Source: Candidatus Bathyarchaeia archaeon (GTDB taxonomy: Archaea; Thermoproteota; Bathyarchaeia; Bathyarchaeales; Bathycorpusculaceae). From it: a stretch of DNA of 27,672 bases. The stretch is taken from positions 1 through 27,672 of the forward strand of contig JBEKXL010000026.1 of NCBI GenBank assembly GCA_049512075.1, given 5' to 3'. Below the pieces are notes generated by a model. That model saw only the letters and a list, made by a program, of their open reading frames with translations. It had not been told where the DNA came from and ran no database searches. A program made the translations under genes and the position numbers. This document shows positions 84 through 27,672 of the stretch, in pieces. The stretch's first letter is position 1, and the number at the start of each line of letters is the position of its first letter.

Positions 84-422
84 GTGGGAAAATTGACTCT
101 TGTGAAAGTTGCTGAAACGTCAGAGATACCTCTGGGACAAATGAAGGTCTTCAAGTCTGCGGAAAAACAGGTTTTGATTGCCAACATAAATGGCGTTTAT
201 TACGCCATCGGAAACGTTTGCACGCATATGGGCGGGGACCTTTCGAAAGGGACATTAGAAGGAAGCACAGTGACCTGCCCACACCACAAAGCTAAATTTG
301 ATGTCACAACCGGCGCAGTAGTTTCGGCTCCAAAAGTTCTCTTCACGCACCCAAAAATCAATGCCGAGCCCACCTACGCGGTGAAAGTTGAAGGAAAAGA
401 CATCCTGCTTGAACGCGAGTAG
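84..422 (+). CDS. Rieske-type [2Fe-2S] ferredoxin (dioxygenase ferredoxin subunit-like)
   Basis: C-x-H (CTHMGG) and C-x-x-H (CPHH) Rieske ligand motifs plus FDVTTG; 112 aa; GTG start. Confidence 0.9.
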   Translation: MGKLTLVKVAETSEIPLGQMKVFKSAEKQVLIANINGVYYAIGNVCTHMGGDLSKGTLEGSTVTCPHHKAKFDVTTGAVVSAPKVLFTHPKINAEPTYAVKVEGKDILLERE

Positions 423-606
423 CGCGGATGCTTGTTCCTAAATCGGTTTTGAATGGTTTTGTTCTCTCTTTTATGATTTTGGGAAGTTTTGGGCTGGGCA
501 TCTGCTCTTGAATTCTTCACACTGTCTCGTCCCCTCGAACCTGCAGAAGCGTGCAGAAACGCAATTAAGACCATTTTTGACCATCTTCGGAACACGCATG
601 TGCGCG
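421..606. repeat. 186-bp element bounded by ~40-bp imperfect inverted arms (GCGCG-anchored TGTTCC arm family)
   Basis: Left arm AGCGCGG-ATGCT-TGTTCCTAAATCGGTTTTGAATGGT from 421; right arm (reverse complement from 606) CGCGCAC-ATGCG-TGTTCCGAAGATGGTCAAAAATGGT; related arms at 23432, 23564(-) and 27546. Confidence 0.75.
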
Positions 607-893
607 AAAACATTTATGTAACGTATCCTCACGCGCTGAGGATATCAGCAACGGGGCATGCTTGTGAGCGTATCTAAGAAGGTAACCAGAGCCAAGATTA
701 GCAGGAATGATAGGGAGGCTATTTTTAGGGTTTTGTGCATGTTATTCAACCCTTAATATCACACGCGCGTCGTCAAACTAGACATCTTGACCACACCAAC
801 AATAAGACAAAGCCAGGCTCGAAAACATAGGGCCTTGTTCAAGATTTTTTGACAACCTTGCGGGACATCCAAATATGATTTTGACAGAAAACG

Positions 894-1601
894 CTACTCA
901 ACCAGTTTTAGGAAGTCTTCTGAGATGTAATTTATGAACTCTTGAGTGGTGCTTTTGCTGAAGAGTGTCACGACGCAGTTCCTTGTGATGCCGACCATGA
1001 TTCCGCGCTTCTGGCTTTCGAAGACGACGTACCAGATTTTTCCATGTTCAAGATAATCATGGTACAGTTTCGTGTCAACAAGATTTGATCCTGCCAAGCA
1101 CAGCTTTTCGACTCCGGGGATGTCAACTTCATCGAACCATATCAGCTTCGTCGCCTGCGGGTTTGACTCGTGAAGCTGCCTGAGGGTCTCATGCGGTATC
1201 CTCACCTCCAGAATCCCCTGAGAATTGATGAAAAGCACTTTGCTGAGCTTGTTCGCAACGTAGTTTGTCAGCAGTTTCTTAACCCCGCGAGCCACGGATG
1301 GTGACGAGACCACTAGGAACGTCTTTTTCTTAGAGGACACTATCCAGAAGGGGGCTTCCTCTGTAGCGGGGGCTTCAACCAAGCTTCGCCTGTAGAATCG
1401 TCTGCGCATGAAATCCCTGCTGAAGACTCCTTCGACGAGGCCCTCCTTGGACTTCAAGTCCAGAATCTCCGTCACTAGACTCACGTTTTCACCGCTCTCA
1501 GTCTTGCAGGATTCCTCTTCCCGGAAATCCTTGAGCTTCCACAACATCAACCCAGGATCAACTTTCTCCTTAATCTCAAACACCTTAGCAGGCAGAACCA
1601 A
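894..1601 (-). CDS. Hypothetical protein (probably conserved in archaea), divergent from rps13
   Basis: 235-aa ORF with normal protein composition; TTG start; CTTTAAAG TATA-like box at 1635-1642; no recognisable motif. Confidence 0.75.
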   Translation of the reverse strand: MVLPAKVFEIKEKVDPGLMLWKLKDFREEESCKTESGENVSLVTEILDLKSKEGLVEGVFSRDFMRRRFYRRSLVEAPATEEAPFWIVSSKKKTFLVVSSPSVARGVKKLLTNYVANKLSKVLFINSQGILEVRIPHETLRQLHESNPQATKLIWFDEVDIPGVEKLCLAGSNLVDTKLYHDYLEHGKIWYVVFESQKRGIMVGITRNCVVTLFSKSTTQEFINYISEDFLKLVE

Positions 1602-1804
1602 TCATTACACCACAAAACAATTTCCACCACCTGACTTTAAAGCATTGCACCAGCTTAACACGAACTATTCATTGAAGGATCACACAAACCCCGCGCTAAC
1701 AAGAGAGCATCCTTAGACTCTCAAAACATGCCGTATGGCCAACGTCAGACCGTTCAGAAAGCGGAAATGAGAGAACTGTAAGTCTTGTTTGGAAACCGCT
1801 ATCC

Positions 1805-1816
1805 TTAAATAAAATA
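1805..1816 (+). promoter_or_regulatory. Putative TATA box of the rps13 operon
   Basis: TTAAATAAAATA about 50 bp upstream of the rps13 ATG. Confidence 0.45.
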
Positions 1817-1863
1817 TGCCTTATTTCGTAGTTAGCCTTGAACATTAACATGGATGGCGATAA

Positions 1864-2343
1864 ATGTCAGAAGAGTTCCGCCATAGACTTCGAATAATCG
1901 ATACTGATGTAGATGGCACTTTGAAGGTGTCCTATGCACTGGCAAAGATCAAGGGAGTCGGCCCCAGCTTGGCAGATGCGATGCTCAGGAAGGCAGGTAT
2001 AAGTTCTGACAAGAGGGCGGGTTTTCTGGCGGAAGCCGAGATTGACCGGTTGGAAGAGTTGATCAAGGATCCTGCGAAGGGCGGCTTGCCAAGCTGGCTT
2101 TTTAACAGGAGAAAAGAACAGGAGACTGGAAAAGACACTCACTTGATAAGCGCAGATCTGGTTCTTAGGACGAAGATGGATATAGAAAAGATGAAGGAAA
2201 TAAAATCTTGGCGCGGATATCGTCATGCTTACGGGTTGAAGGTGAGAGGCCAAAGAACCAAGACAACCGGCAGAGCAGGTAAAGCATTGGGTGTCAAGAA
2301 GAAAACGCTCATGCAGAGACCAGGCGCAACGGAGAACAAGTAG
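1864..2343 (+). CDS. rps13: 30S ribosomal protein S13 (uS13)
   Basis: ALAKIKGVG, PSWLFNRRK and SWRGYRHAYGLKVRGQRTKTTGR motifs. Confidence 0.98.
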   Translation: MSEEFRHRLRIIDTDVDGTLKVSYALAKIKGVGPSLADAMLRKAGISSDKRAGFLAEAEIDRLEELIKDPAKGGLPSWLFNRRKEQETGKDTHLISADLVLRTKMDIEKMKEIKSWRGYRHAYGLKVRGQRTKTTGRAGKALGVKKKTLMQRPGATENK

Positions 2344-2345
2344 CC

Positions 2346-2915
2346 ATGGGCGACCCGAAGAAACAGAGAAAGAAGTACGACACTCCCCGTTTTCCTTGGC
2401 GAACCGACATCATGCAGGGAGAGCTTAAACTCATCGGCGAGTACGGACTGCGAAACAAACATGAACTGTGGCGGCATGAAACACTGCTTTCAAAGTTCAG
2501 GGGGATAGCTCGCACACTCATAGGCGAAACACCTGAAGAACGCAAGAAGATGGAAAATGAGCTCTTAGCCCGCCTGAAAAAACTCGGCGTACTCGACGAA
2601 ACAGCAGTTTTGGACGACGTTTTAGACTTGACGATAGAGGATATTCTTGAGCGCAGATTCCAGACAATTGTTCTTCGCAAGGGTCTAGCAAAGACGATGC
2701 AACAGTCTCGTCAACTGATAGGCCATGGACACATGACGATAGGAAACCGAAGAGTCACGACTCCTGGCTATATAGTGCCGAGACCTGAGGAAGGTCAGAT
2801 AAGCTACACGCCCAAGAGTTCGCTCGCAAACCCGGCTCATCCACTGCGTCAAACAATAGCGGTAACGCCGGCGGCAGAAGCAAGATCGGCCAAACCACGG
2901 AGTGAAGGAGAATAA
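2346..2915 (+). CDS. rps4: 30S ribosomal protein S4 (uS4)
   Basis: [34 protein letters not shown] and [10 protein letters not shown] motifs; position in operon. Confidence 0.98.
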
Positions 2916-3316
2916 TGAGCTCAAGCAAGAGAACCGAAAGATGGGCAGTCGTCCACATATTCAGTTCCTATAACAACACCATAATACACATAACCGACAT
3001 TTCGGGCGCCGAAACGATAGCCCGAACGTCGGGGGGAATGGTTGTGAAAGCCAGTAGGATGGAGTCCTCACCCTATGCGGCGATGCGTGCGGCCTCGCTG
3101 GCCGCGGACGTTGCTAGGGATAAGGGAATAACCGCGATCCACATCAAGGTTAGGGCTCCTGGGGGAGCGGGGCCCAGAACACCCGGTCCCGGCGCGCAAG
3201 CTGCTATCAGAGCGTTGGCAAGGGCGGGGTTCAGGATTGAACGAATCGAAGAAGTAACGCCTGTACCGCATGATGGCACGAGGAGACCTGGCGGCAGAAG
3301 AGGAAGAAGAGTCTAG
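2915..3316 (+). CDS. rps11: 30S ribosomal protein S11 (uS11)
   Basis: [33 protein letters not shown] and [14 protein letters not shown]. Confidence 0.98.
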
Positions 3317-3420
3317 AAGGTAAGTACGATCCTTCTTCTGATAGAAAAATTGAAATAATGCACCAATGTTCTATTGAGCGGCACAGCAAGGTGGAACACT
3401 GTTATGGGGTGTCCTTACAA

Positions 3421-4242
3421 GTGGAAATAAAGGTGCTTGAGAAAGACGAAACAAACATGCGTTTGCTCGTTCGAGGAGCCGATGTCCCATTCATGAATGC
3501 GCTTAGAAGAATCGTGACCTCTGAAGTTCCGAGCATGGCTATAGACGAGATTGTAATCTTGGAGAACTCTTCCATACTTATGGACGAGACAATCGCCCAC
3601 AGACTGGGGCTTATTCCGCTAAGAACTGACTTGGACAGTTACAACCTGCCCGAGGAATGTCCGTGCAAGAGTGAATTCGGATGCAACCTCTGCCGAGTTA
3701 CATTCGCGTTGGACGTGGACGCCAAGGGAGAAGGAAGAACGGTCTACTCGGGTGACCTGGTTTCAGAGAATCCTAACGTCGTGCCAGTGAGCGACAGAAT
3801 TCCAATATTGAAACTGGCTAAGGAACAGAAAATAAAGCTTGAGGCTTACGCAAGGCTTGGAAAGGGCAAGAACCACGCGAAATGGGAACCAGTTTCAATG
3901 TGCACCTACAAGTATTATCCGAAAATAGAGATTACAAAACGCTGCAGCGTGTGCGGCAAATGCGTGGAGATGTGTCCTAGAAGAGTTCTGGTGAAAAAAG
4001 GCGACAGCATCGAAGTGAATGATGTGATTGCCTGTACGCTCTGCCAAGACTGCGCCAACGCTTGTCCAGAGAGTCCACCTGCAATACAAGTCTCGGGAGA
4101 AGAAAACGCATTTATATTCAATCTGGAATCTACGAGTGCGCTTCCTCCGGAAAGGATAATGGTCGAGGCCAGCAAAATACTGGACAAACATCTGAAGGAA
4201 CTTGAGGGCGAAATCAAGGTGAGAAAGAGTGAAAAAAGTTAA
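3421..4242 (+). CDS. rpoD: DNA-directed RNA polymerase subunit D (Rpo3) with ferredoxin-like domain
   Basis: NALRR, NSSILMDETIAHRLGLIPL and GKNHAKW; two CxxCxxCxxxCP motifs; start moved to the in-frame GTG at 3421 after a GGGGTG RBS-like motif (ORF track starts at 3358). Confidence 0.96.
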   Translation: MEIKVLEKDETNMRLLVRGADVPFMNALRRIVTSEVPSMAIDEIVILENSSILMDETIAHRLGLIPLRTDLDSYNLPEECPCKSEFGCNLCRVTFALDVDAKGEGRTVYSGDLVSENPNVVPVSDRIPILKLAKEQKIKLEAYARLGKGKNHAKWEPVSMCTYKYYPKIEITKRCSVCGKCVEMCPRRVLVKKGDSIEVNDVIACTLCQDCANACPESPPAIQVSGEENAFIFNLESTSALPPERIMVEASKILDKHLKELEGEIKVRKSEKS

Positions 4243-4591
4243 ACCGACGAACCCGGAACTTCTAGAACTCGCTAGTTCTCTCAAGAAGCAGAGCAGGGAA
4301 AGCAAGGCAGAAGTCTGGCGAGACATTGCTGAACGCTTGGTCAAATCTAGGAGAAGACGGATATCCGTGAACCTGAGCCGTCTGGACAGATACACTTCTA
4401 AGAACGAAACGGTGGCCGTTCCCGGCAAGGTGCTGGCTGCGGGCGAGATAACCCACCCCATAACCGTTGCTGCGTTCACTTTCTCGGGAAAAGCAGAAGA
4501 AAAAATAAAAGCTGCAAAAGGAAAATGCGTGTCTTTCTCTGATCTTGCCAAGAAGAACCCGAAAGGTTCAAACGTCAAAATTATCGGGTGA
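4229..4591 (+). CDS. rpl18e: 50S ribosomal protein L18e (eL18)
   Basis: TNPELL, VNLSRL, VPGKVL, VAAFTFS and NPKGSNVKIIG. Confidence 0.97.
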   Translation: MKKVKPTNPELLELASSLKKQSRESKAEVWRDIAERLVKSRRRRISVNLSRLDRYTSKNETVAVPGKVLAAGEITHPITVAAFTFSGKAEEKIKAAKGKCVSFSDLAKKNPKGSNVKIIG

Positions 4592-4595
4592 AAAA

Positions 4596-5039
4596 ATGGA
4601 GACCATGACCAAAACCGCCACTGTAATAGACGCTGACGGTCTTATTCTGGGCAGAATGGCAAGCAGCATTGCCAAGAGACTCTTAGAGGGCGAACATGTG
4701 ATGATTGTGAACGCTGAAAAAACTGTTCTTTCCGGGAAAAGAAGAAGCAAGGTGAACGAAGCAAAGGTGTTTCTCGAAGTTGGAGGAGTGGGAAGAGGGC
4801 CGTTCCACTACAGAAGGCCCGACAGAATAGTCAGAAAGGCCGTCAAGGGCATGCTTCCAATGAGGAAGCCGAAAGGCCTTCAAGCTTACAGAAGACTGCA
4901 AGCGTTCATAGGAGTCCCGGACAATCTTAAAGACCAGAAGATGGGCACTCTGGCGGATGCTCAAGCCAAGAAGTTGACCTGCCCATATTTCACGGTCGGC
5001 GAACTTGCGAAAGGAATAGGTTGGAATCAAGGAGAATAG
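4596..5039 (+). CDS. rpl13: 50S ribosomal protein L13 (uL13)
   Basis: IDADGLILGRMAS, VNAEK and RPDRIVRKAVKGMLP; ATG at 4596 after a GGTGA RBS. Confidence 0.97.
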   Translation: METMTKTATVIDADGLILGRMASSIAKRLLEGEHVMIVNAEKTVLSGKRRSKVNEAKVFLEVGGVGRGPFHYRRPDRIVRKAVKGMLPMRKPKGLQAYRRLQAFIGVPDNLKDQKMGTLADAQAKKLTCPYFTVGELAKGIGWNQGE

Positions 5040-5041
5040 GT

Positions 5042-5452
5042 ATGCCTGCCAAAAAGAGTTTAGTTGTTAGCGGAAAAAGAAAAACAGCCACCTCACGCGC
5101 CGTCGTGAGGACTGGAATCGGAAAGGTGCACATTAACAGAACTCCGGTGGAGATTTTTGAGCCGGAAATCGCGCGCGAGAAGATTATGGAACCACTCATA
5201 CAGGCTGGAGATGAGGTTCGCAACCAGTTGGACATAGACGTGAAGATGTCGGGCGGAGGTTACATGGGTCAAGCTGAGGCGGCTAGGATGGCGATTGCGA
5301 ACGCCATACTGAAATGGACGAAGAGTTCACATCTGCGCACGGTTTTTGCTGAATACGACAGAACGATGATTGCTGGAGACAACAGGAAGAAAGAACCCAA
5401 GAAGTTCGGAGGACCCGGAGCGCGGGCGAGGAATCAGAAGAGCTACAGATAA
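5042..5452 (+). CDS. rps9: 30S ribosomal protein S9 (uS9)
   Basis: GKRKTA, GGGYMGQAEAAR and KEPKKFGGPGARARNQKSYR. Confidence 0.98.
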   Translation: MPAKKSLVVSGKRKTATSRAVVRTGIGKVHINRTPVEIFEPEIAREKIMEPLIQAGDEVRNQLDIDVKMSGGGYMGQAEAARMAIANAILKWTKSSHLRTVFAEYDRTMIAGDNRKKEPKKFGGPGARARNQKSYR

Positions 5453-5467
5453 AGAGGTTTGGATCGG

Positions 5468-5695
5468 ATGATAATACCTGTTAGATGTTTTACTTGTGGT
5501 AAACTGGTTGGAGACAAATGGGAGGAGTTCGCTAGAAGGGTGAAGGCTGGAGAGGATGCTGGCGAAGTTTTGGACAGTCTGGCGGTCAAACGTTACTGTT
5601 GCAGGCGGATGCTTCTCTCGCACGTGGAAATATTCGATGAGGTGCTGCGGTTCTCCGAAGAGGCTGAAAAACGAAAAGAGGCCAGAAGCTACTAA
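5468..5695 (+). CDS. rpoN: DNA-directed RNA polymerase subunit N (Rpo10)
   Basis: [12 protein letters not shown] and [11 protein letters not shown]. Confidence 0.98.
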
Positions 5696-5718
5696 TAGGG
5701 CGATTGAAAGGGAAAACC

Positions 5719-6981
5719 ATGTCTACAATCATTGAAGACGTAATTGCGAGAAAGGTCTTCAACGGCCGGGGAGAAGAAACGGTCGAAGTTGATATCATCA
5801 CAACCTCGGGCTTCGGTAGGGTTGCAGCCCCCGCGGGGAAAAGCAGGGGAAAAGCAGAGGTCGTTTATTATCCGCAGGGCGGAGTGGAACAAGCGGTAAA
5901 AAAAGTTGAAGAACTCATAGCGCCGGAAATAGTGGGCTTGGGCGCTGATTGTCAAGAAGAGATCGATAAAACTTTGCATGACCTCGATGGTTCAAAGGAT
6001 TTTCGGGCAATCGGCGGCAACACCGCATTCGCCGTCTCATTAGCCTGTGCCGAAGCCGCCGCAAACTCTTCCGGGCTACTGCTCTTTCAGTACCTGGGCG
6101 GGCATGTCGCGCACGAACTTCCGTATCCGCTTGGCAACACGATAAGCGGCGGGCAGCACGCTCAAGGAAAGTCTCCTGACTTACAGGAGTTTCTGGTTCT
6201 GTCACATGGAGCCGAAACTTTCTTGGAGGCTGCGACGGCTAACATAATGGTTCACAGAAAAGTCGGAGAGACTCTGGTGAAGAAAGATAAGCTCTTCGGC
6301 CAGGGAAAAAGCGATGAGGGCGCGTGGGTTGCCAACGTGGGAACCGCGGAGGCCTTAGAGGTTATGGCACGGGCCTGTGAAAATGTCGGTGCGGAAATGG
6401 GTTTCGAGTGCGGGATGGGCGTTGACATCGCATCTTCTTCGCTGTGGAACGGCAAGACCAAGACTTACAACTATCAGAGGGAGAAGAAAACCAGAGACTC
6501 GGGGGAACAGCTGGAATTCATCCTTGAACTCATCAAGAAATATCATCTGACTTATGTCGAAGACCCATTCCACGAAGAGGACTTCGCAAGCTTCGCGGAG
6601 TTGACAAAGAAAGCCAAGAACTGCTTGATATGCGGCGACGACCTTTTCACGACAAACAGCGAAAGACTAAGTCGCGGGATAAAGTTGCACGCGGCCAACT
6701 CTATCATAATAAAGGTCAACCAGGTGGGCACGCTGACGGACGCCTGGGAAACCATCGAAATGGCGAAAAGAAATGGATACGTACCAGTGATGTCTCACCG
6801 TTCGGGTGACACATGCGACTGGCATATAGCACACTTGGCCGTGGCTTTCAAATGCCCCGTAATAAAGACGGGGGTTGTTGAAGGCTCTCGCATCGCGAAA
6901 ATAAACGAGTTAATAAGGATCGAGGAGTTTCTTGGGGACAGGGCCGTGATGGCCAGTCTTGATATGCTTCAAGGAGGATAG
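5719..6981 (+). CDS. eno: Enolase (phosphopyruvate hydratase)
   Basis: GGQHA, QEF, DEG, EDPF, GDDLF, IKVNQVGTL, SHRSG and IKTG catalytic/metal motifs. Confidence 0.96.
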   Translation: MSTIIEDVIARKVFNGRGEETVEVDIITTSGFGRVAAPAGKSRGKAEVVYYPQGGVEQAVKKVEELIAPEIVGLGADCQEEIDKTLHDLDGSKDFRAIGGNTAFAVSLACAEAAANSSGLLLFQYLGGHVAHELPYPLGNTISGGQHAQGKSPDLQEFLVLSHGAETFLEAATANIMVHRKVGETLVKKDKLFGQGKSDEGAWVANVGTAEALEVMARACENVGAEMGFECGMGVDIASSSLWNGKTKTYNYQREKKTRDSGEQLEFILELIKKYHLTYVEDPFHEEDFASFAELTKKAKNCLICGDDLFTTNSERLSRGIKLHAANSIIIKVNQVGTLTDAWETIEMAKRNGYVPVMSHRSGDTCDWHIAHLAVAFKCPVIKTGVVEGSRIAKINELIRIEEFLGDRAVMASLDMLQGG

Positions 6982-6985
6982 AAAC

Positions 6986-7747
6986 TTGTCTGAGGATGAT
7001 GGCAGCAAGGAGAATATCGAAGAAGAAACTGCGGAAGAAACCGAGGATGAAGAGACGATAGAGGAAGAGGTAAAACTGACGGAGGAAACCAAAGCGGAGG
7101 CAACAGAACCAAGCGTTGAAGCGGCTCCGGAAGAAGAACTTCTGATTCCGCGAGACACGTTGCTGTCCGCTGGAATACACATCGGAACCAGAATGAAAAC
7201 TGGAGACATGGAACAGTTCATATACCGCGTGAGGGCCGACGGCCTGTTTGTCTTGGACGTTAAGAAAACGGATGATCGCATAAGAGTTGCCGGCAAGTTC
7301 CTTGCACGATTTGAACCCGGAAAAGTTGCTGCTGCGGGGGCTAGACTTTACGCACAAGAACCGGTAACCAAATTCTGTCAATTAACCGGAGCAACTCCTG
7401 TGATCGGACGGTTCATTCCGGGACTCTTGTCAAATCCGTTGTATCCTAACCGCATCGAACCAGAGGTACTCCTAGTATCTGACCCGAGAGCTGACATCCA
7501 AGCCGTAAGAGAGGCGGCTTCCGTGGGGATACCTGTGGTGGCTCTATGCAGCACAGACAACGAGTTTAACGGGGTGGACCTCGTAATCCCAACGAACAAC
7601 AAAGGCCGACGCGCGTTGGCCGTCATCTACTGGCTCTTGGCAAAGCAGACACTGCGCGAGAGGGGCGAATTGGCGATGGACAAGGACCTGCCCCTGACAA
7701 TCGACGATTTTGAAGCGAAGATTGCGCGGGAGGAGGAGGAAACCTAA
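6986..7747 (+). CDS. rps2: 30S ribosomal protein S2 (uS2) with acidic N-terminal extension
   Basis: GIHIGT, GRFIPG, DPRADIQAVREA and IPTNNKGRRAL; TTG at 6986 after AGGAGG. Confidence 0.96.
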   Translation: MSEDDGSKENIEEETAEETEDEETIEEEVKLTEETKAEATEPSVEAAPEEELLIPRDTLLSAGIHIGTRMKTGDMEQFIYRVRADGLFVLDVKKTDDRIRVAGKFLARFEPGKVAAAGARLYAQEPVTKFCQLTGATPVIGRFIPGLLSNPLYPNRIEPEVLLVSDPRADIQAVREAASVGIPVVALCSTDNEFNGVDLVIPTNNKGRRALAVIYWLLAKQTLRERGELAMDKDLPLTIDDFEAKIAREEEET

Positions 7748-7751
7748 CCTA

Positions 7752-8603: not shown

Positions 8604-8612
8604 TGGTGCAGA

Positions 8613-10383: not shown

Positions 10384-10386
10384 ATT

Positions 10387-11490: not shown

Positions 11491-11492
11491 CC

Positions 11493-12563: not shown

Positions 12564-12567
12564 ACAA

Positions 12568-14337: not shown

Positions 14338-14351
14338 CGGAGGAGAAAGGT

Positions 14352-14651: not shown

Positions 14652-14654
14652 CGC

Positions 14655-15050: not shown

Positions 15051-15100
15051 GGTTTTCTCACTTGGTGCTAAATTTGGTGTTCACTATCACCATTTGTTAA

Positions 15101-15108
15101 AATATAAA
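15101..15108 (-). promoter_or_regulatory. Putative TATA box of rps8e
   Basis: TTTATATT on the minus strand about 50 bp upstream of the rps8e start. Confidence 0.45.
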
Positions 15109-15109
15109 C

Positions 15110-19945: not shown

Positions 19946-20008
19946 TCAGTTTAAGCCCTCACTTTCTCCGAAACATGCCCCTATCTCATCGTAGACATTT
20001 GTCTGATG

Positions 20009-20020
20009 TTTTTATAAAAA
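20009..20020 (-). promoter_or_regulatory. Putative TATA box of smc-scpAB
   Basis: TTTTTATAAAAA about 65 bp upstream of the smc ATG. Confidence 0.45.
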
Positions 20021-20059
20021 TGTTTACTGTGTCTCCAAGCTTTAACAGTTACGTACTTT

Positions 20060-20584
20060 TCAGTGTTCTTTTCCAGCCTTCGACTTGTACTTTGCAGCAA
20101 TTTTCTTGACAAAATCTTTCAAGACCGCGTCTGGTCCCAAAACAACCAGGTACTCGTCGTTTTGGACTTTGCACGAAAGATTCGATTCCTTTGCAAGAGC
20201 TTTCAGTTTTTCGAGGGACAACTCGTTTGAGGGTGTGAGGCGAATCCACTTCTGTTCTCCGGGCACGCCGGAAATGAACTTTGTTTCCTCTTCCTCTTCA
20301 TCCACGATTTTTCGGCCAGCTTCATCCGTCCGCTGAAGCCATTCATCAACGTATGCTTGGCCGAACCTTCTCTGTCCCTCAGAAATCAGGTAGGATTCTA
20401 CATTTGTAAGGTATCCGTCAATTTTCTGTGCGTTCTCCCCGCGGCTTGGGTCAGCTTTCAAAATCTTGATTATTGTCTTTGCGCTTTTCAAGTCGCCAAT
20501 TATGTCTGCTGGAACGGTTACTTCTTTTTTCTTGAAGTCGGTAACCATTTCTTCCAGCACCTTCCAAACGGCGAGGTATCCCAT
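20060..20584 (-). CDS. DUF2096-like archaeal protein
   Basis: W.VL..M..D...DL..AKT.I and VESYL..., F..GVP...WIR pattern recalled for this family; probable ATG at 20584. Confidence 0.65.
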   Translation of the reverse strand: MGYLAVWKVLEEMVTDFKKKEVTVPADIIGDLKSAKTIIKILKADPSRGENAQKIDGYLTNVESYLISEGQRRFGQAYVDEWLQRTDEAGRKIVDEEEEETKFISGVPGEQKWIRLTPSNELSLEKLKALAKESNLSCKVQNDEYLVVLGPDAVLKDFVKKIAAKYKSKAGKEH

Positions 20585-20678
20585 GGGCCAGTTCACTGTT
20601 CCATGTTTCTTTAGGCAATCGTATTTATTTAGGAATTGTCATGATAGGATGGAACAAATGAAAACTCTGGGAAATTGC

Positions 20679-21257
20679 TCAGAAACCAGATTGGGCTTGG
20701 ATGGGTAAGCGTTTTCCAAATCTCTCTTCATAGACTATTTGGCGAAGTTCTTTTCTTTCTTTTTTCAGAATGTCGTACTTGGCGTGCCCAATCGGGAGAA
20801 GCGTTATCACACGGTGGTTTTTCGGGATTTCCAGAATTTTTTTCACTTTGGCCTCAGCTGAGTTCTTCTGGTCTTTCAAGTCAAAGATGCCAATCCAAGC
20901 GGTTTGCAATCCCAGACTGTGAGCGGCGAGGGCCATGTTCTGTGTTGCTATGGCCCCGGCCTCTACAAAGTGGTACGGGTCTTCCTCAGTGTTAACGGTG
21001 ACTGCGATGCAAACTGGCGCTTCTCTTAGTCCCTGGACAAAAGCCGTGGGAACTACCTCGCTCAATTGTTCTTTCGTTTTCGGGTCTTTTATGATTGTGA
21101 AGTTCCAGGGCTGCTTGTTAAGCCAGGAAGGTGCCCACCGTCCAGCCTCAAGGACATCTTCAACCTTGCCCTGTTCCACACCGGTGCTTTCAAATCTGAG
21201 GGTTGTTCGTCTTTTCTTGATTACGTCCAAAACTGGGTTGTCCATAGGCTCATTCAT
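20679..21257 (-). CDS. Nitroreductase family protein
   Basis: IKKRRT.LRF, WAPSWLNKQPW, QNMALAAHSLGL and LPIGH; TTATAAAA box at 21284-21291. Confidence 0.92.
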   Translation of the reverse strand: MNEPMDNPVLDVIKKRRTTLRFESTGVEQGKVEDVLEAGRWAPSWLNKQPWNFTIIKDPKTKEQLSEVVPTAFVQGLREAPVCIAVTVNTEEDPYHFVEAGAIATQNMALAAHSLGLQTAWIGIFDLKDQKNSAEAKVKKILEIPKNHRVITLLPIGHAKYDILKKERKELRQIVYEERFGKRLPIQAQSGF

Positions 21258-21471
21258 CCTCTTAGTATCTGGTTAGAACCGTATTTTATAAGCTTTAACA
21301 CTTTTGATCACGCGGCTAAGACGGAGTCTTGTGTCCGTTGAGGGAATATCCCGTTTTGTGAAAAGAGGGATTTTGACATGTTTTTTGGGCCAATAGAGTG
21401 AATTTCCGATTCTGCTTTTGAATTCATAAACGTTTAATGTTTCAGAAAGTTAGTTGTGTCTGCAGGGTGAG

Positions 21472-21696
21472 TTGTCTTTGAACGAACAAATCCTTCAAGC
21501 TTGCAAAGAATTGGTTGACGACGCAAAGCAGGGTTGCGCTGATTTGGTTTTTAAAGAAGTCTGTCTCGAAATTCTATCAAGAGCAAGTCACGTTTTGACA
21601 GAACGCCAATTCAAACAGCTGGCTACGTACACGTCTGAAAGAATGAAAGGGAAAATGTCTCTTGAACTTCAACAGGAATTAGCTATGAACAGGTAG
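21472..21696 (+). CDS. Small helical hypothetical protein
   Basis: TTG at 21472 preceded by a GGTGAG RBS; 74 aa amphipathic helical sequence; fills the intergenic gap. Confidence 0.6.
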   Translation: MSLNEQILQACKELVDDAKQGCADLVFKEVCLEILSRASHVLTERQFKQLATYTSERMKGKMSLELQQELAMNR

Positions 21697-21852
21697 GGCA
21701 TAGCGTAGCTTCGCACGTTAATCGTCTCAGTATCATTAAGCGCATTTCAACTCTCGCTGAGGCTGTATCTCCGGTCGTCCTCACCCTGCCTTGCCTTTTT
21801 CGCAACATTTTTTTGTTACAGATACGACTTGAAACGGGTTACGTATCGGAGC

Positions 21853-22341
21853 TTAGCTGAGCTTGTAGCCTATTTTCCGCAGAAACTCCTTCCTCTCTTT
21901 GATGTCCAGCTCGGTTTCTATGCCCTTGCTCTTCGCCCCGTCGACTACGCCGACTATTCCTCTTCCTTGCTGTGTTTCTGCAATGATAATTTCTAGGGGG
22001 TTTGCTGTTGCGGCATAGATTGTGCAGACTTCTGGGACTCTCTTAACCTTGTCTAGGACGTTTATTGGGTAAGCGTTCTTCAAGAATATTATGAAACTGT
22101 GGCCGCAGCCGATTTCAAACGCAGTTTTTGCTGCGAGTTGCCTCAACTCTTCATCAGTTCCTTCATGCCTCACTAGGCATGGGCCTGAGCTTTCGCAGAA
22201 GCCTATACCGAACTTTATGTTGGGAACGGCGCTAACCAACGCTTCATACAGGTCTTCTACAGTTTTGATGAAATGCGCCATGCCCAGAATCACGTTGCAA
22301 CCTTCACGCGCTTCAACCCTGACAGTTTTGTACTCCAACAT
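21853..22341 (-). CDS. Adenosine-specific kinase family protein (AMP-binding, PF04008-like)
   Basis: [37 protein letters not shown] and [10 protein letters not shown]. Confidence 0.9.
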
Positions 22342-22414
22342 TAGGATTCCCCTGCTTGCTTGCTAGTGTATTACTTCTTAATCTACATTTTTGAGTTTGA
22401 ACTTTGCCACTTTC

Positions 22415-22832
22415 GCTGCGAGCGCGCGCGTTGCTAATCCAAGTATGCTGAAACACCTTTTGCATCATAGCCCAGCGAAGTCGCCCCCCTTTTTCACTTG
22501 TAATGTCAGATGTAATGTGTATGGTAACAAACCATGAAGAAAATCAGGCTGAACTACCGTTCAGAGTGGACTCGGCCCGTTTATTTGTAATGTCAGATGT
22601 AATTTTCATTGTAATAGTCAGGGATTTGGTAGTGTTGCCCGTGGTACAAAGCCAGAATGGTCAGGTCTGGCAGGCTTACTTCGCCGTTGCCGCCTACGTC
22701 GCGCGCGCCGAGTTTCTGGCTGAGAGAACGGGGCTGTTACATGAGGAATTCGCCGTTTTTTGTAGAAGGGCTTATCGTCTGCGCATATTTCTCCGTTTTC
22801 TTCATGTCTTTGAGTGTGCGCGCGTTCGCAGC
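22415..22832. repeat. 418-bp non-coding segment bounded by 15-bp imperfect inverted repeats
   Basis: GCTGCGAGCGCGCGC (22415-22429) versus GCGCGCGTTCGCAGC (22818-22832): 14/15 complementary. Confidence 0.55.
22498..22615. repeat. Two perfect 19-bp direct repeats built from TGTAAT units at 12-bp period
   Basis: TTGTAATGTCAGATGTAAT at 22498-22516 and 22585-22603; extra units at 22523 (GGTAAC) and 22610 (TGTAAT). Confidence 0.85.
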
Positions 22833-22919
22833 TTAGCCCTTTTTTTGGTTGTCGGTCGGAAAAAGTGCCCAATAGTCAGTACAGACCCGAATCCGCTTCG
22901 TCATCATTTCTACGACAAG

Positions 22920-22927
22920 TTTTATAA
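22920..22927 (+). promoter_or_regulatory. Putative BRE/TATA of the CxxC-x17-CxxC gene
   Basis: CGACAAG followed by TTTTATAA, about 80 bp upstream of the ATG at 23007. Confidence 0.45.
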
Positions 22928-23006
22928 GTCTCTGAGGCTTGTGATAACTGCGTCGTGCAAGAAGCGATTTTTGCACAAAACAAGCAAAAGGAGTTGAAAT
23001 CGTAAA

Positions 23007-23147
23007 ATGGCAGAGAAAGAGATGCACAAGGCAGTTTGCGCTGATTGTGGAAAGGAATGCGAAGTTCCCTTCAAGCCTGACACAAGCAGACCAGTATACT
23101 GCCGAGAGTGTTGGTCCAAGAAAAGAAACTCGAGAAGAAGATTCTAA
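23007..23147 (+). CDS. CxxC-x17-CxxC zinc-ribbon protein (46 aa; not in ORF track)
   Basis: Manual translation MAEKEMHKAVCADCGKECEVPFKPDTSRPVYCRECWSKKRNSRRRF; AGGAG upstream; T-rich tract downstream. Confidence 0.92.
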   Translation: MAEKEMHKAVCADCGKECEVPFKPDTSRPVYCRECWSKKRNSRRRF

Positions 23148-23355
23148 ATCAAGCTAATCGCTTTATAGAAACCGTCTTTATTCTCTCTTTTCTTTTTAAG
23201 TGCACACCATTCAGGTTGTGTTTCTAGTCCCTTCAATTTGCGCCAGAGACACGGCATGAGTTTCGGATTGAGGTTTTTGAGCCTCTGCCGTGGAAAGCGT
23301 GAGACCGAAAGCTCTAAATTTCTTGGCGTTCGTCTTTTGTAAAGCAAGTAAAGAC

Positions 23356-23432
23356 GGGCCGGTAGTTCAGTTGGTATGAACGCCTGACTTGCACTCAGGA
23401 GGTCTGGGGTTCAAATCCCCACCGGTCCACCA
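23356..23432 (+). tRNA. tRNA-Ala (anticodon UGC), intronless, CCA encoded
   Basis: Acceptor GGGCCGG/CCGGTCC with the G3:U70 Ala determinant; D stem GTTC/GAAC; anticodon arm CCTGA-CTTGCAC-TCAGG; T arm TGGGG-TTCAAAT-CCCCA; A73 then CCA. Confidence 0.97.
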
Positions 23433-23564
23433 GCGCGCATGCCTGTTCCTAAATTCATTTGCGGGCGATATATACTTCTTCATTCATGACACAGTCCCTT
23501 GCAGCGAGATACAACTCAAGCCTACTGCACCCAAAGAAGGAATTTAGGAACACCCTAGCGCGCT
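23432..23564. repeat. 133-bp inverted-repeat element directly after tRNA-Ala
   Basis: AGCGCGC-N5-TGTTCCTAAATTC at both ends in inverted orientation (7/7 and 13/13 perfect; N5 mismatched). Confidence 0.85.
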
Positions 23565-23735
23565 ACCAGCCTCCGAATCTCTGAGCCGGCGGAAACATGT
23601 CGAATGCACAGCTTGGCTGTTGTAGAAAGTGCGGTCGTAAAGGTCAGCTGGGAGAGGCTTGAGACAGATAGCACAGCAGGCGGCCTTCTGTTCCGCTACT
23701 GGAACACTTGGAACTCGTGGAACGCATGTTTCCAC
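23544..23735 (-). CDS. Putative small zinc-finger protein (CxxC...HxxC)
   Basis: CAICLKPL...VHSTCF ligand pattern; purine-rich leader; last codons and TAA stop lie inside the repeat arm. Confidence 0.45.
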   Translation of the reverse strand: METCVPRVPSVPVAEQKAACCAICLKPLPADLYDRTFYNSQAVHSTCFRRLRDSEAGSALGCS

Positions 23736-23783
23736 TCTCTTTTTTTCTCTCTCCTTAGCGCGCGCTGAACCAGAAAGCGACTC

Positions 23784-24152
23784 TTGGGAATTTCAGGCCT
23801 TTCAGGAAGGAACAGAACAAAAGATGATTTTTGGCATGACCGGAGAGAAAGCGTCAAAACGTCTCTCATAGACTTGGGCCTCTTTATAGAAGTGGCTGAA
23901 AAAGACCAGGTGAACCAAGTTTTGACTCAAGAAAACCTGACGCCTGTAGTCGAGGCACTTCTTTGGCATCCAGTGGTCGATCGAGCTGATCCGGACTTTG
24001 GAAGGGCTGAGATCGCTTAGCTATTCATTCAAGCGGGTTTCAATTACCTAAGTGCTATGAGGGCTAATAACATGACTCTTTCTCATAAGCGGACGATAGA
24101 GGAAGCCATTGATTTGAGTAGATATCTTATGGAATCCTTTAGCGCGCGCTAG
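23784..24152 (+). pseudogene. Fragment of an unknown gene with an internal TAG, bounded by GCGCGCGC palindromes
   Basis: 78-codon ORF, TAG at 24018-24020, then 43 more open codons in the same frame (LFIQAGFNYL...ESFSAR) ending at a TAG in the 24140 palindrome. Confidence 0.5.
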
Positions 24153-24577
24153 TAGAAGTACGTTGCTGTTATTATCGCAGATGCTCGACTGGCGTTTAGG
24201 TTGCCGACGGCGATTTCCACGGAAGCCGGCAGAATAGGAAAAGTCACGTTCGCCTCGTCTACTCCCGGGTTCACTCTGCGACTGTAGCTGAGGCCATTAG
24301 CATAGTAGGACACCTCTATGTATATGCTGGGAGATGCTGATTCCAATTGAACTGTAACATACCCTGCATAGCCAACCGAATAGGAATTATCAGCTTCCCC
24401 ATTGCTCTCAAAGATGAAATAATGCTGGTCAAGCAAAATCTGAGATTCGCACAGATCGACAATATTGCTGAGCCTATATACCCCACTCACCACAAACACC
24501 AGACCAACCACGAGTACCACGCATGAAATTCCAAGCACAATGGCGATGCCTCTACCGACGACTTTCTTTTCACTCAT
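24149..24577 (-). CDS. Membrane-anchored hypothetical protein (N-terminal TM helix, beta-rich extracellular domain)
   Basis: MSEKKVVGR plus a ~25-aa hydrophobic helix, then YAGYVTV and FPILP beta strands; stop TAG is part of TAGCGCGCGCTA. Confidence 0.75.
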   Translation of the reverse strand: MSEKKVVGRGIAIVLGISCVVLVVGLVFVVSGVYRLSNIVDLCESQILLDQHYFIFESNGEADNSYSVGYAGYVTVQLESASPSIYIEVSYYANGLSYSRRVNPGVDEANVTFPILPASVEIAVGNLNASRASAIITATYFY

Positions 24578-24665
24578 CGTGAAACCTCTGATTTACTGTG
24601 TGAGGCCGTGGAAAATAAAGATTAGCACACATTCCGCCAAGCGCGCGCTAAAGAGATAACACCCG

Positions 24666-24680
24666 TGAAACAATGTTTCA
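24666..24680. promoter_or_regulatory. Candidate operator TGAAACA-A-TGTTTCA upstream of the SBP promoter
   Basis: Perfect 7-bp inverted repeat directly upstream of an AACCTTTTATT BRE/TATA-like element. Confidence 0.45.
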
Positions 24681-24753
24681 GTAAACCTTTTATTCGCAAA
24701 AAACACACGTTTCCACTGCCGAAAATAATACAAATCGAAAGGAGAGAAAGGAA

Positions 24754-27183
24754 ATGAAGATTTTAGCTGTTGCAGCATGTATTGTTCTTACAATAATGAT
24801 GTTCGCACCGATTGCACCTGTCCACGCAATAGCACCGATAGCGGACGAACACATGAACACGATTCAGTACAGGTATTTTGACGGTCAAGACTCTCTGTTC
24901 ACTGCCCTGCTGACGCCAGACAGCGCCGGCGGAATCGACATCATGGGTTGGCCGATTACAAAAGCCGAATATAACTTGGAAATAAACAACACGGCCATAT
25001 GCGTCATGCCGTTCGTTGAGGCTGGCGAGTTTGAGATAGCCTTCAACAACAACTGGACTGACGGTGTCCACATGGACCGCAGAAGCCCAATGAACTTCAC
25101 CGACGTCAGGAACGCGCTGAACTGCCTGGTGAATAAGCCAGGAGTAATCGCCGGCCCAACCCTTCAGGGTTTCGCCACGAGAAGCGACACCCAGGTTCCC
25201 GACCCGCTCATGCACCAGTACGTGAACACAGCCGTTTCTTACCCCAACTACCCATGGGAATTCAACGAGACCAAAGCCATCCAGATCCTCTACACGGGTG
25301 GCTGGTACAACCACGCCTTCTACCCGACACTCCAGAGCGCCATCGACACAGTCAACAACGGCACGATGGCAAGCAACGGTGGCACAACTAAAGGTGTCGT
25401 GTACTCCGGCAATGACCCCCACGGTCAATGGGGCGGAGGCGACCCGAAAGCCACCGCAAACTCTGCAATCGCCAACACCCCACTCGCAACCCTGGTCGCA
25501 TATGTTCGAAGCGCAGACGCGCGAAAAGACCTGGGTGACATGTTCCAGGCCGAACTCACAAAGATAGGCATTCCCTCCGCAGAAAACTACAAGCCCTTCT
25601 ATGCTGCTATGAGACCCTACGTGCTGGACGCACAGCTATACGACTGGGCAACCCTAGGCTACAGCATGGGCTCGCCGCCAAACTGGTGGTACACCGAGCT
25701 CACGCCCGCAGGCATCTACTCCGGAGGTCCCAACCCCTACCTAGTTGACGACTCAAACACGACCAAATATGCGCTCGCGGCCTTTTCAGACAGTACTCCA
25801 GCCCAATACAACCTTGACCAGTTGACTGTTCAGTACAACCTGGTCATGGAGTCCTACTTGGTGCCCGGCTACTCCCCAGCAACCTACTGCGCCTACAAGA
25901 CAGGCATGTTGAGCATGCTGAACGAGCTGGGCTACGGCACACAAGGCCAAAACCAACTCCTGAACTGGATAATGTTGCACGCCAGAAAATCCAACATGGT
26001 GCTGTACTCTGGTCCTCCATCGGGTACGCCAGAAAGCAACATAATCTACTACGGCGTTTACAACCCGCCAGACATGCTAAACCCAATCTTCAGCGACGAG
26101 GTCTGTGACTTCCAAGTATTGGACGAAATGTTCACATATCCAATGGCTGCTAACCCGTACAATGACATCGTCCCAGGCAGCGCAATCACCGGCTTCCCAC
26201 AGGGCAGCGACCTGCCCTGGATGGCCTACGCCTGGAAGATTGAAACCATCACCGACTCAGCCACAGGACTGGTGGGCGACTCGAACGTCACGTTCTGGTT
26301 TAGGCACGACTTCTACTGGAGTGATGGCGTGCCTTTTGACGTGAACGACCTCAACTACACCATATACATAAACGCGTTCTACGGTGACTCTTGGACCAAC
26401 GCGGCAATGGTGTTCATGACCAACCAAACAAACGGCTACAAACCCTACTTCCAGAGATGGGACCAATGGACCTGCTCTGTCTGGGTCAGCACAGCGAGCT
26501 GGCTGAACCTGTACATGCCAAACGTTGAAATTGTACCGGAACACATCTACAAGTGGATACAGCCAAGCAACGCTACAGATGCCAATAATGGCGTATCGAA
26601 AGACGGTCTACACGGCCTATGGCCTGGCCAGGCCGCGGTCCTAGGCAACGTGCTGCCAGGCGCACCTTTCACGCTGTCGCAGCTCACCGACCCGAACCAC
26701 GGAATGGAAATCACGTGGGTTGGCACAGGCCCATTCACGTACCGACCGGGCACCACAAGTTCCGGAGGGTTCGTCGCAGGTGGAGGCGTAACCCTCGACC
26801 GCAACCCAGCCTTCCCGATAAACCCATTGATAGTTGAAATAGCCTTCAAGTACACGTGGCTCAACACTGCTCCTTCAGCGCAACCGTCGGGCGGATACTA
26901 CAAGATAGGCTTGGCGGACTTGGTTATGCTTGCTAACTCGTACCAAACCTACCGTGGAACACCGCCTGGAGCAGTGCCACTCATGCCAACAGGAGCCCAC
27001 TATTGGAACCCAGCAGCTGACGTGGCTGCACCTGCAGGCGTCATCAGCCTGACAGACCTGGTCACGTTAGCCTATTTCGCCGGCGTGTATGGATGGTACT
27101 GGGGCAACTACAGCTACAACATACCAACAAGCCAAATTTCGCCTTCGGAACTGGCATACGCAGCACAATACGGCTGGCCATAA
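24754..27183 (+). CDS. ABC transporter substrate-binding protein, family 5 (Opp/Dpp-like), circularly permuted, with C-terminal dockerin-like repeats
   Basis: Signal peptide ending VHA; VRNALN, FNETKA, LNPI, WSDGVPF..NDL and GTGPF motifs; C-terminal IGLADLVMLA...WNPAADV...ISLTDLVTLA. Confidence 0.85.
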   Translation: MKILAVAACIVLTIMMFAPIAPVHAIAPIADEHMNTIQYRYFDGQDSLFTALLTPDSAGGIDIMGWPITKAEYNLEINNTAICVMPFVEAGEFEIAFNNNWTDGVHMDRRSPMNFTDVRNALNCLVNKPGVIAGPTLQGFATRSDTQVPDPLMHQYVNTAVSYPNYPWEFNETKAIQILYTGGWYNHAFYPTLQSAIDTVNNGTMASNGGTTKGVVYSGNDPHGQWGGGDPKATANSAIANTPLATLVAYVRSADARKDLGDMFQAELTKIGIPSAENYKPFYAAMRPYVLDAQLYDWATLGYSMGSPPNWWYTELTPAGIYSGGPNPYLVDDSNTTKYALAAFSDSTPAQYNLDQLTVQYNLVMESYLVPGYSPATYCAYKTGMLSMLNELGYGTQGQNQLLNWIMLHARKSNMVLYSGPPSGTPESNIIYYGVYNPPDMLNPIFSDEVCDFQVLDEMFTYPMAANPYNDIVPGSAITGFPQGSDLPWMAYAWKIETITDSATGLVGDSNVTFWFRHDFYWSDGVPFDVNDLNYTIYINAFYGDSWTNAAMVFMTNQTNGYKPYFQRWDQWTCSVWVSTASWLNLYMPNVEIVPEHIYKWIQPSNATDANNGVSKDGLHGLWPGQAAVLGNVLPGAPFTLSQLTDPNHGMEITWVGTGPFTYRPGTTSSGGFVAGGGVTLDRNPAFPINPLIVEIAFKYTWLNTAPSAQPSGGYYKIGLADLVMLANSYQTYRGTPPGAVPLMPTGAHYWNPAADVAAPAGVISLTDLVTLAYFAGVYGWYWGNYSYNIPTSQISPSELAYAAQYGWP

Positions 27184-27200
27184 ACCAGCAAAAACACCAA

Positions 27201-27218
27201 CTCTCCCCCCCATTTTTC
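27201..27218 (+). terminator. Putative pyrimidine-tract terminator of the SBP gene
   Basis: CTCTCCCCCCCATTTTTC starting 18 bp after the stop codon. Confidence 0.45.
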
Positions 27219-27545
27219 TGTCGCTCGCGCGTAATGCTTGAACGTAACAAAACCACTCAGACCTGTCTATATTGGCAAAGCACTACGCCCAACACTACCC
27301 ATAACTCCCCTTTTCCATTGAGCAATCGCGGGCTAGCTGATCTTGAGAATGACCAGGTATTCATTGAAGGCTTCAGGGAGAAGTACAGGCTGGCCTAGAA
27401 GATCCGCAGGCGGTTCAAAGCCTCAAGCCTTTCTTTTTCTCTGTCTCAGGTCTTTTTTTGGCTCCATTTCTTTTCTGTTTTCGTCCTTTCGTCACTACCC
27501 CAACTACCACACAAGCCACAAGAAGTTGCCGAATGAAACCCATAA

Positions 27546-27653
27546 AGCGCGCTGGCTTGTCCCTAAAATGGTTAAAAATGGTTTTTATTCTTCTTTTGTC
27601 TTTTCGAGTTGGATATGGGCTTGTTTTCTGGGCAAATCTTGGCCGCGCGCTAA
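27546..27653 (+). repeat. Third locus of the GCGCGC-anchored TGTTCC arm, closed by another CG palindrome
   Basis: AGCGCGC-TGGCT-TGTCCCTAAAATGGTTAAAAATGGTTTT is 31/40 identical to 421-460; CGCGCGCTAA at 27644-27653. Confidence 0.7.
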
Positions 27654-27672
27654 GATGGCAAATCAACGGGTT

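Follow-up and report, generated by a model that had tools for sequence, protein, structure and literature searches.

GCGCGC palindromes between the genes of a Bathyarchaeia archaeon as probable scars of an IS5/IS1182-like transposon family

We analysed a window of 27,672 nt, the entire contig C26 of a 2,725,246-bp Bathyarchaeia genome (G000; 86 contigs, 47.5% G+C), and followed up the GCGCGC palindromes scattered between its genes, which a first-pass annotation had taken for an undescribed system partitioning intergenic and accessory DNA into modules. The window encodes archaeal housekeeping functions (enolase, a mevalonate kinase-type GHMP kinase, an FMN-dependent dehydrogenase, GluRS and SMC), and the nearest public relatives of its enolase belong exclusively to Bathyarchaeia metagenome-assembled genomes. 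Positions 2,000-22,000 form a densely packed core, and the palindromes concentrate in 22,400-24,650 and at both contig ends. GCGCGC occurred 22 times (overlapping counts) against 7.1 ± 2.7 expected, and none of 100 dinucleotide shuffles rose above 15; 15 of the 22 lay within 22422-27650 and seven in the 2-22 kb core. The ten positions that the annotation gave for GCGCGC(GC) were all exact. The core, with its enolase, mevalonate-pathway, GluRS and SMC genes, held no intergenic GCGCGC and aligned with the relative G002 as a single 22-kb block at 96% identity. The enolase neighbourhoods of 80 Bathyarchaeia relatives were uninformative, since they cover this packed core, which has no intergenic site in the window itself.

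Several of the palindromes carry an arm called class A. At the left end of the window, a solitary class A arm, its core decayed (AGCGCGG-ATGCT-TGTTCCTAAA), lies at 421-445 on the plus strand, and the same decayed arm is found in G002; its TAG at 421 provides the stop codon of a Rieske-protein gene (84-422). On the right, tRNA-Ala(TGC) (23356-23432, plus strand) is followed by a 131-bp class A miniature inverted-repeat transposable element (MITE; 23433-23563), GCGCGC-ATGCC-TGTTCCTAAATTC ... GAATTTAGGAACA-CCCTA-GCGCGC, which is not present after the tRNA in G002. The annotation had let the site start on the last base of the tRNA CCA; it begins at 23433, directly behind the CCA that ends at 23432. 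The window closes with the first 126 bp (27547-27672, plus strand) of a ~304-bp class A MITE of the TGTCCC variant, to which the GCGCGC at 27645 is internal. Copies of this MITE also occur terminally on contigs C16 and C19 and internally on C31 (full copy C31:18856-19160), and the window contig stops at 27672 because its end falls inside this shared repeat. Class A was described earlier with five copies; the arm is real, and four window copies match its decamer with at most one mismatch (432, 23443, 23542 on the minus strand, and 27557).

The remaining palindromes of the right-hand region bound other kinds of DNA. A 287-bp repeated unit (22422-22708) has GCGCGCGC at both ends (22422-22429 and 22701-22708) and no inverted ends; on the minus strand it comprises the last ~35 codons of a gene and a 143-bp repeat (22484-22626). 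Its inward arms belong to families of seven and six copies and its outward arms are unique, and dozens of copies of the unit occur in G002 and G001. The open reading frame (ORF) in it had no Pfam match, and a "dockerin-like" label for the gene 3' end was dropped for that reason. The 143-bp repeat contains the internal direct repeat TTGTAATGTCAGATGTAAT twice, is likewise present in dozens of copies in G002 and G001, and adjoins several indel boundaries; it may be a further MITE or belong to a 3' UTR or terminator. Next to the unit, between two palindromes, lies a 3' remnant of an M29 aminopeptidase gene, its last ~28 codons (22709-22817, minus strand), which is the truncated gene that the annotation had correctly seen bounded by sites. 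The 110 bp including the remnant are missing in G002, with one GCGCGC in their place. The bare GCGCGC at 22818-22823 is a derived deletion junction: ~1.1 kb is present there in G003, G004 and G021, the lost DNA amounts to 340 codons of the M29 gene plus upstream DNA, and G003 and G021 retain an intact 368-aa Peptidase_M29 gene at the locus. Three bare (GC)4 sites follow, at 23758-23765 (TA flank on the left), 24142-24149 (TA on both sides) and 24641-24648 (TA flank on the right). The last two enclose a gene-sized module with a 142-aa ORF (24149-24577, minus strand; no Pfam match), and the right-hand TA of the 24142 site opens the CTA at 24149-24151 that is the TAG stop of this ORF. Overlap of sites with stop codons, claimed for four ORFs, was confirmed for the TAG at 421 and at 24149. 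Finally, the stretch 27226-27299 (plus strand) comprises CGCGCG and, after it, a gene 3'-end fragment of the kind seen in 22628-22669. The shared arm once called class C is weak, coming down to 42 nt at ~71% identity in inverted orientation, and each copy is a piece of the same type of gene 3' end.

Genome-wide, the class A decamer TGTTCCTAAA occurred 288 times with at most one mismatch, in 107 cases with GCGC or CGCG just upstream, and the commonest form was (TA)GCGCGC-N5-TGTYCCTAAA-WTGGTNAAAAATGGT. The arms formed 44 inverted pairs, 40 of them spanning 100-1300 bp and mostly 131-306 bp, and there were a few miniature derivatives of ~480 bp. Two ~1.1-kb pairs (C15:7516-8641 and C32:7467-8577) enclosed ORFs of 295 and 289 aa, which matched DDE_Tnp_1 (PF01609; E 4.3e-24 and 5.9e-17) together with DUF772 (PF05598). 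The short units are MITEs: they have no transposase gene, are present in many copies and share their arms with the 1.1-kb elements. The nearest NCBIfam models were IS1182 (143 bits, cut-off 270) and IS5_4 (104 bits, cut-off 140), both below the family cut-off; judged by these profiles, the predicted transposase is related to the IS5/IS1182 group and is not a member of a named family. A transposase search of G000 returned six matches, and full-length element copies of G000, G021, G002, G004, G001 and G003, among them six loci counted in five genomes, all ended in GCGCGC or GCGCGCGC. Every element copy was flanked by the GCGCGC motif at both sides, and about a third of the MITE pairs, counted by eye, had TA on both sides; one insertion sequence (IS) type had TA before one end and C before the other in three of three independent insertions. 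No back-to-back elements sharing one hexamer were retrieved by regular expression, two apparent cases being chance look-alikes. Class A therefore represents the terminal inverted repeats of a ~1.1-kb, IS5/IS1182-like DDE transposon and of its MITEs, so that the supposedly undescribed system turns out, in this part, to be the end of a transposon encoded elsewhere in the genome.

The palindrome itself is far more abundant than its class A form. GCGCGC was the top hexamer of the genome by observed over expected counts (1873 against 1257 under a Markov-4 model). With coding DNA delimited by a crude ORF mask (83% coding), its density was 2.76/kb in non-coding and 0.275/kb in coding DNA, a 10.0-fold difference which bears out the roughly tenfold enrichment estimated earlier, and GCGCGCGC was 14.8-fold denser in non-coding DNA; 13 control GC-rich or palindromic hexamers gave ratios of 0.56-1.27. 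The coding density of GCGCGC was within or near the range of these controls (0.08-0.33/kb). Merging of overlapping runs yielded 1227 (GC)≥3 sites, 766 of them non-coding or at gene edges, with run lengths of 6 nt (362), 8 nt (328), 10 nt (74) and 12 nt (2). On each side the sites showed a weak, symmetric T-A preference and nothing more, and the earlier class B dissolved into this preference. Site density reached 1.22/kb in divergent, 1.57/kb in tandem and 1.95/kb in convergent spacers, and no fixed distance to gene starts or stops was detected genome-wide, except for 16 cases in which TAG overlapped a site. A promoter or terminator signal was ruled out, because all three spacer types are occupied and there is no sharp distance to gene ends.

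We then took 50 nt to either side of each site as arms and clustered all 2454 of them. Class A accounted for 116 arms and small families for 28 more, so that 144 arms fell into families of at least three, and 2278 were unique. Bare non-coding sites, with no repeated arm on either side, numbered 650, and neither position frequencies nor 6-mer counts revealed a longer motif around them. An excess in non-coding DNA was shared by the one-base transition variants of GCGCGCGC, which is what decay of the sites should produce. At eight places in G000, two hexamers stood 1-10 nt apart.

To follow the sites between genomes, 1.154 Mb of G002, which is ~95% identical to the window, was compared with G000, giving 732 kb in 204 one-to-one blocks at 94% identity. 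The results revealed that 158 of 398 internal block ends (~40%) had a site no more than 10 nt away in at least one of the two genomes, compared with 1-12 of 398 for ten control hexamers and 4.3% for random non-coding positions. At 47 block ends the site was common to both genomes and the DNA beyond it differed. Inside aligned blocks, 78 of 153 non-coding sites were identical, against 60% of random non-coding 7-mers; since this is no better than neutral DNA, the sites are not under purifying selection and turn over fast. Two-base differences in the length of the GC run were common, and otherwise collinear DNA contained some 10-12 nt insertions holding (GC)3-5, as well as one 13-nt replacement. 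Intergenic enrichment throughout the genome, many more class A copies and relatives that break exactly at the palindromes, on all of which the annotation had staked its proposal, were all found.

Among 50 clean indels (one allele ≤15 nt, the other ≥40 nt), 21 involved a site. In at least four of them, a module bounded by two sites in one genome was matched by just one site in the other, which in some cases had decayed (for example window 22709-22817, C33:10344 and C3:89808). In 11, a short allele of (GC)3-4, often exactly GCGCGCGC, replaced 92-1018 bp without the motif at its ends, and several of the lost segments were nearly complete ORFs. Polarity could be assigned in three cases, and in all three the motif-bearing allele was a derived deletion: at window 22818, at C35:12302, where G001 has the long allele, and at C16:27811, where G004 has a segment of matching length. 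Two more deletion events had no usable outgroup, and of four short GC-run insertions three had no outgroup cover and one was ambiguous. The junctions of the derived deletions contained only (GC)3-4 and 0-3 other bases. The motif was not at every rearrangement, other indels carrying the ordinary 9-12-bp direct repeats of other mobile elements. Compared with G002, G000 has such other elements inserted at C30:13482-19121 (5.6 kb), C18:31915-34890 (3.0 kb) and C12:45909-51930 (6.0 kb), flanked by 9-12-bp direct repeats and lacking the GCGCGC motif. A 575-bp deletion at G000 C16:38288 (G002 C3:72296-72871) produced (GC)4 without added bases by joining a natural ...GGCGC to a natural GCGCTT... with both GCGC copies kept, which suggests that breaks or joins favour existing GCGC.

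Traces of element removal were also sought. For a 224-bp MITE at G000 C12:23719-23943, G002 has both end pieces only, the interior being lost; the insertion is ancestral, because a mutation of the right end is common to both genomes. In 32 further comparisons, the sequence just outside an arm of one genome was set against its counterpart locus in the second genome (counts read by eye). Where the arm was absent from the other genome, nothing stood past the flank in ~8 cases, a bare site stood at the boundary in ~4, and a truncated arm of 3-17 nt in ~6; one arm truncated after 17 nt ran straight into GCGCGCGC. One-flank comparisons for intact MITEs gave a mixed outcome. Observations of the excision-footprint type thus comprise one clear case, the eight double-hexamer sites and the truncated ends, and most bare sites have no demonstrable former element.

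Contigs of four public metagenome runs (labelled wetland, peat and freshwater) were placed on window 21800-27672 as population data, and position bins without contig cover (for example 24152-24543 in run X7) were excluded from the evidence. A 15,669-nt contig of run X7 fitted 23045-23438 and 23558-24149, with 9574 unrelated letters between; its breaks coincide exactly with the two hexamers that bound the window MITE at 23433-23563. From 24149, where a further site has its far edge, the same contig no longer matched the window and continued for 5109 letters. Loose contig ends accumulated at 22708 and at 27545-27548, and many contigs began to fit at the latter position.

We next assessed the distribution of repeat and palindrome among 41 related genomes. 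The exact class A pattern occurred in eight of them, namely all five of the genus (G000, 61 copies; G001, 5; G002, 24; G003, 3; G004, 27) and G021 (19), G024 (3) and G020 (1), and transposase homologues were found in all five genus genomes and G021. Counts of TAGCGCGCGC (reversed control in brackets) were 231 (22) in G000, 188 (16) in G004, 166 (18) in G002, 142 (17) in G021, 129 (9) in G003 and 48 (6) in G001, modest in G018, G023, G013, G024 and G019, and at most 3 in all remaining genomes. Sampled sites in G023 and G018 included related-subfamily arms that the exact pattern overlooks. Bare sites therefore appear, on these genome counts, to be associated with lineages that carry the elements, the genomes being kin.

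Taken together, we consider it probable that the bare GCGCGC palindromes are scars of this DDE transposon family, not a new recombination system and not protein-binding sites. The terminal inverted repeats of a lineage-specific family would have GCGCGC as their outermost six bases, and the ~650 bare (GC)3-5 sites would be the junction residue left after an element, or an element with neighbouring DNA, was removed and the ends were rejoined. Any two alternating-GC ends are self-complementary and could pair; the runs might afterwards slip by two bases in length and then decay by point mutation. As to the chemistry, the transposase may cut within the ends and end joining may close the break, or microhomology or slippage at the palindromic tips may suffice. 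Gene-sized deletions with a scar could arise when two elements flanking a gene are excised together, or when an insertion accompanied by a deletion is followed by loss of the element. Accessory DNA would then look partitioned as a record of past insertion and deletion, not because the sites are read. That most bare sites descend from element ends is what we infer from these comparisons.

End joining of transposase breaks is feasible as judged from gene content, because a complete archaeal end-joining set is present: three adjacent genes at G000 C16:5124-8191 (locus L185:2625-5692) encode a LigD-PrimPol (PF21686), Ku (PF02735) and a fusion of ATP-dependent ligase and 3'-phosphoesterase (PF01068 + PF04679 + PF13298). 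Ku was detected in only six of the 41 genomes.

Several results weigh against the scar interpretation. Ku was not found in G021 (98% complete), G003 or G001, all rich in palindromes, and three genomes with no more than two TAGCGCGCGC sites, G010, G020 and G040, do have it. No empty site with both flanks alignable was obtained for an intact MITE (0 of 40 pairs in G000, 0 of 10 in G002); no clean filled/empty pair thus defines the target sequence or any target duplication. Past the GC run, bare sites retain almost none of the repeat: a prefix of at least 4 nt occurred in 7.4% of solo arms compared with 5.0% of random non-coding positions. Fused element ends should often show TA on both sides, and only 25 of the 650 bare sites do, the two flanks being independent with 21% TA each; a simple TA-(GC)n-TA footprint was thereby ruled out as the main source. 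Nor is TA oriented toward the conserved side of block ends, which leaves without support a one-ended model in which TA would flag the outer side. (GC)2 showed no excess, and A..T-flanked runs of n = 3 to 6 numbered 58, 95, 43 and 0, a peak at (GC)4 that simple annealing of self-complementary overhangs does not predict. Loss of unique DNA leaving only (GC)3-4 requires at least two steps under this model, and the genomes compared are relatives, so the association with lineage does not consist of independent observations.

A bolder extension holds that the transposase, with or without host Ku-LigD, acts as a general cut-and-rejoin engine for any DNA between two tips, which we regard as unlikely. 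Not only whole genes but also units that lack inverted repeats, such as 22422-22708, would then be excised, deleted or moved, with bare (GC)3-5 left at the junctions. If so, hundreds of such events could be read off the genome, and the shuffling of gene-sized modules would rely on a mechanism undescribed for prokaryotic insertion sequences.

Alternatively, GCGC or GCGCGC could be a preferred target that is duplicated on insertion, the bare sites being empty or vacated targets. IS5 itself targets a 4-bp palindrome, and such a target would account for the motif at both sides of every element copy, for the X7 contig with 9574 unrelated letters between the two hexamers of the window MITE, for the two-site modules that equal one site in the other genome and for the 47 block ends with a shared site and differing DNA beyond; (GC)4, as two copies of a GCGC duplication, would also agree with the length peak. 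In all three polarised cases, however, the sites were derived at junctions whose ancestral ends had no GCGC, and the enrichment is confined to element-carrying genomes. The IS type with TA at one end and C at the other in three insertions speaks against the flank being a duplication, and a target preference offers no source for the sites; we find this explanation quite unlikely.

The narrow content of the deletion junctions, (GC)3-4 with 0-3 bases, could instead reflect a filler, (GC)n being added at any rejoined double-strand break by Ku-LigD or another polymerase, independently of transposons. The complete end-joining operon, the 10-13-nt insertions or replacement with (GC)3-5 in collinear DNA and the MITE truncated after 17 nt that directly meets GCGCGCGC accord with this. 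Yet G021, G003 and G001 hold 142, 129 and 48 TAGCGCGCGC sites with no Ku found, the Ku-bearing G010, G020 and G040 hold at most two, and it would have to be a coincidence that all transposon subfamilies end in this one hexamer. To our knowledge, no polymerase has such a GC-run specificity, and we rate a filler origin as improbable.

In its inference the annotation had placed transposase targets or scars, which fit the data, beside site-specific recombination, in which a recombinase would insert and excise cassettes of gene size by crossing over at the palindromes. The modules that match one site in the relative (window 22709-22817, C33:10344, C3:89808 and others) and the 287-bp unit, which has no inverted ends and is bounded by (GC)4 in several copies, would be natural products of such a process. 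Recombination is nevertheless disfavoured, because new sites stand at three deletion junctions where the ancestor had none; in addition, the sites are 6-10 nt long without conserved arms, such arms as exist belong to the DDE transposon, and no recombinase candidate turned up, none having been specifically sought. Evidence for integron-like cassette assembly was lacking, and we consider crossover sites highly improbable. A functional or methylation-driven motif (chromatin or regulatory protein binding, Z-DNA, or a HIP1-like repair bias linked to a methylase) would suit the rank of GCGCGC as the most over-represented hexamer and its symmetric T-A flanks, but is scarcely credible given conservation no better than neutral DNA, occurrence in all spacer orientations without fixed distance to gene starts or stops, an unraised coding density, and no C5 cytosine methylase (PF00145) found in G000, G001, G003, G004 or G021, N4/N6 methylases not having been searched.

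Among described systems, the IS5/IS1182 group with its MITEs, the prokaryotic counterpart of PIF/Harbinger with Tourist MITEs, is closest in build: it shares the DDE_Tnp_1 and DUF772 domains, the ~1.1-kb length, terminal inverted repeats of ~20-35 bp and many short, non-coding, mostly intergenic derivatives with the same ends. The present family differs from it in falling below the NCBIfam cut-offs, in its perfect GCGCGC palindromic tips, in the lack of an establishable target duplication and in the roughly tenfold excess of bare tips over intact ends. In their workings the bare sites come closest to the excision footprints of eukaryotic cut-and-paste transposons such as the P element and Tc1/mariner, with which a few bases of each end stay behind when the element is excised and the donor site is closed by end joining. 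The MITE reduced to two end pieces and the Ku-LigD set of the host resemble this situation, whereas most bare sites here have neither a flanking duplication nor bases past the GC run, and many replace deleted unique DNA. We know of no description of transposon footprints on such a scale in a prokaryote; a literature search covering titles and the beginnings of abstracts returned no report of them for prokaryotes or archaea, and a full-text search yielded no title matching an intergenic GCGCGC motif or Bathyarchaeia transposons.

Other short repeats are less similar. The GC clusters of yeast mitochondria are short GC-rich palindromes of tens of bp and defined classes that lie in AT-richer spacers and coincide with deletion hotspots; the bare sites are likewise short GC palindromes at deletion hotspots, but they measure 6-10 nt and are linked to a DDE transposon. 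Repetitive extragenic palindromes (REPs) and their mosaic elements (BIMEs) with RAYT transposases are also very numerous, short, intergenic and possible IS insertion sites. REPs, however, are imperfect palindromes of 20-40 nt with a conserved head and a conserved position, whereas only a weak T-A preference extends beyond the 6-10 nt unit here, and turnover is fast. HIP1 (GCGATCGC) is similarly a short GC-rich palindrome and the most over-represented word of its genome; it is abundant inside genes too and is linked to methylases, unlike the present motif with its ordinary coding density and no C5 methylase in the five genomes searched. Integron attC sites measure 57-141 bp, have paired inner and outer repeats and lie beside an integron integrase, and the armless 6-10 nt sites do not resemble them. 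The Neisseria dRS3 repeats and intergenic mosaic elements (NIME) consist of a conserved 20-bp repeat flanking families of repeat units; here no sequence is conserved past the GC run, and 144 of 2454 arms fall into families of at least three.

The window also contains ORFs apart from these elements. A 235-aa ORF at 894-1601 (minus strand) had no Pfam match, and an 809-aa protein encoded at 24754-27183 gave a sub-threshold solute-binding (SBP_bac_5) match only and has paralogues in G002 at ~69% DNA identity. A 46-aa ORF at 23008-23148 with two CxxC pairs resembles a small zinc-ribbon protein and had no Pfam match; for the surrounding DNA (22954-23112), G001-G004 and G021 contain several further loci that are 76-87% identical.

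With the transposon identified, the remaining worth of the palindromes lies in the scale and sharpness of the scars and in how scars form. In practice, the hexamer marks variable modules and likely contig breaks in peat and wetland Bathyarchaeia assemblies. If the sites are scars, these ~770 non-coding positions, about half of which differ between genomes 94% identical, would constitute a dense and datable record of element insertion and loss that is rare among prokaryotes. It would then be measurable from sequence, in uncultured archaea, whether archaeal Ku-LigD end joining repairs transposase breaks and how large a share a single IS/MITE family has in gene loss and accessory turnover.

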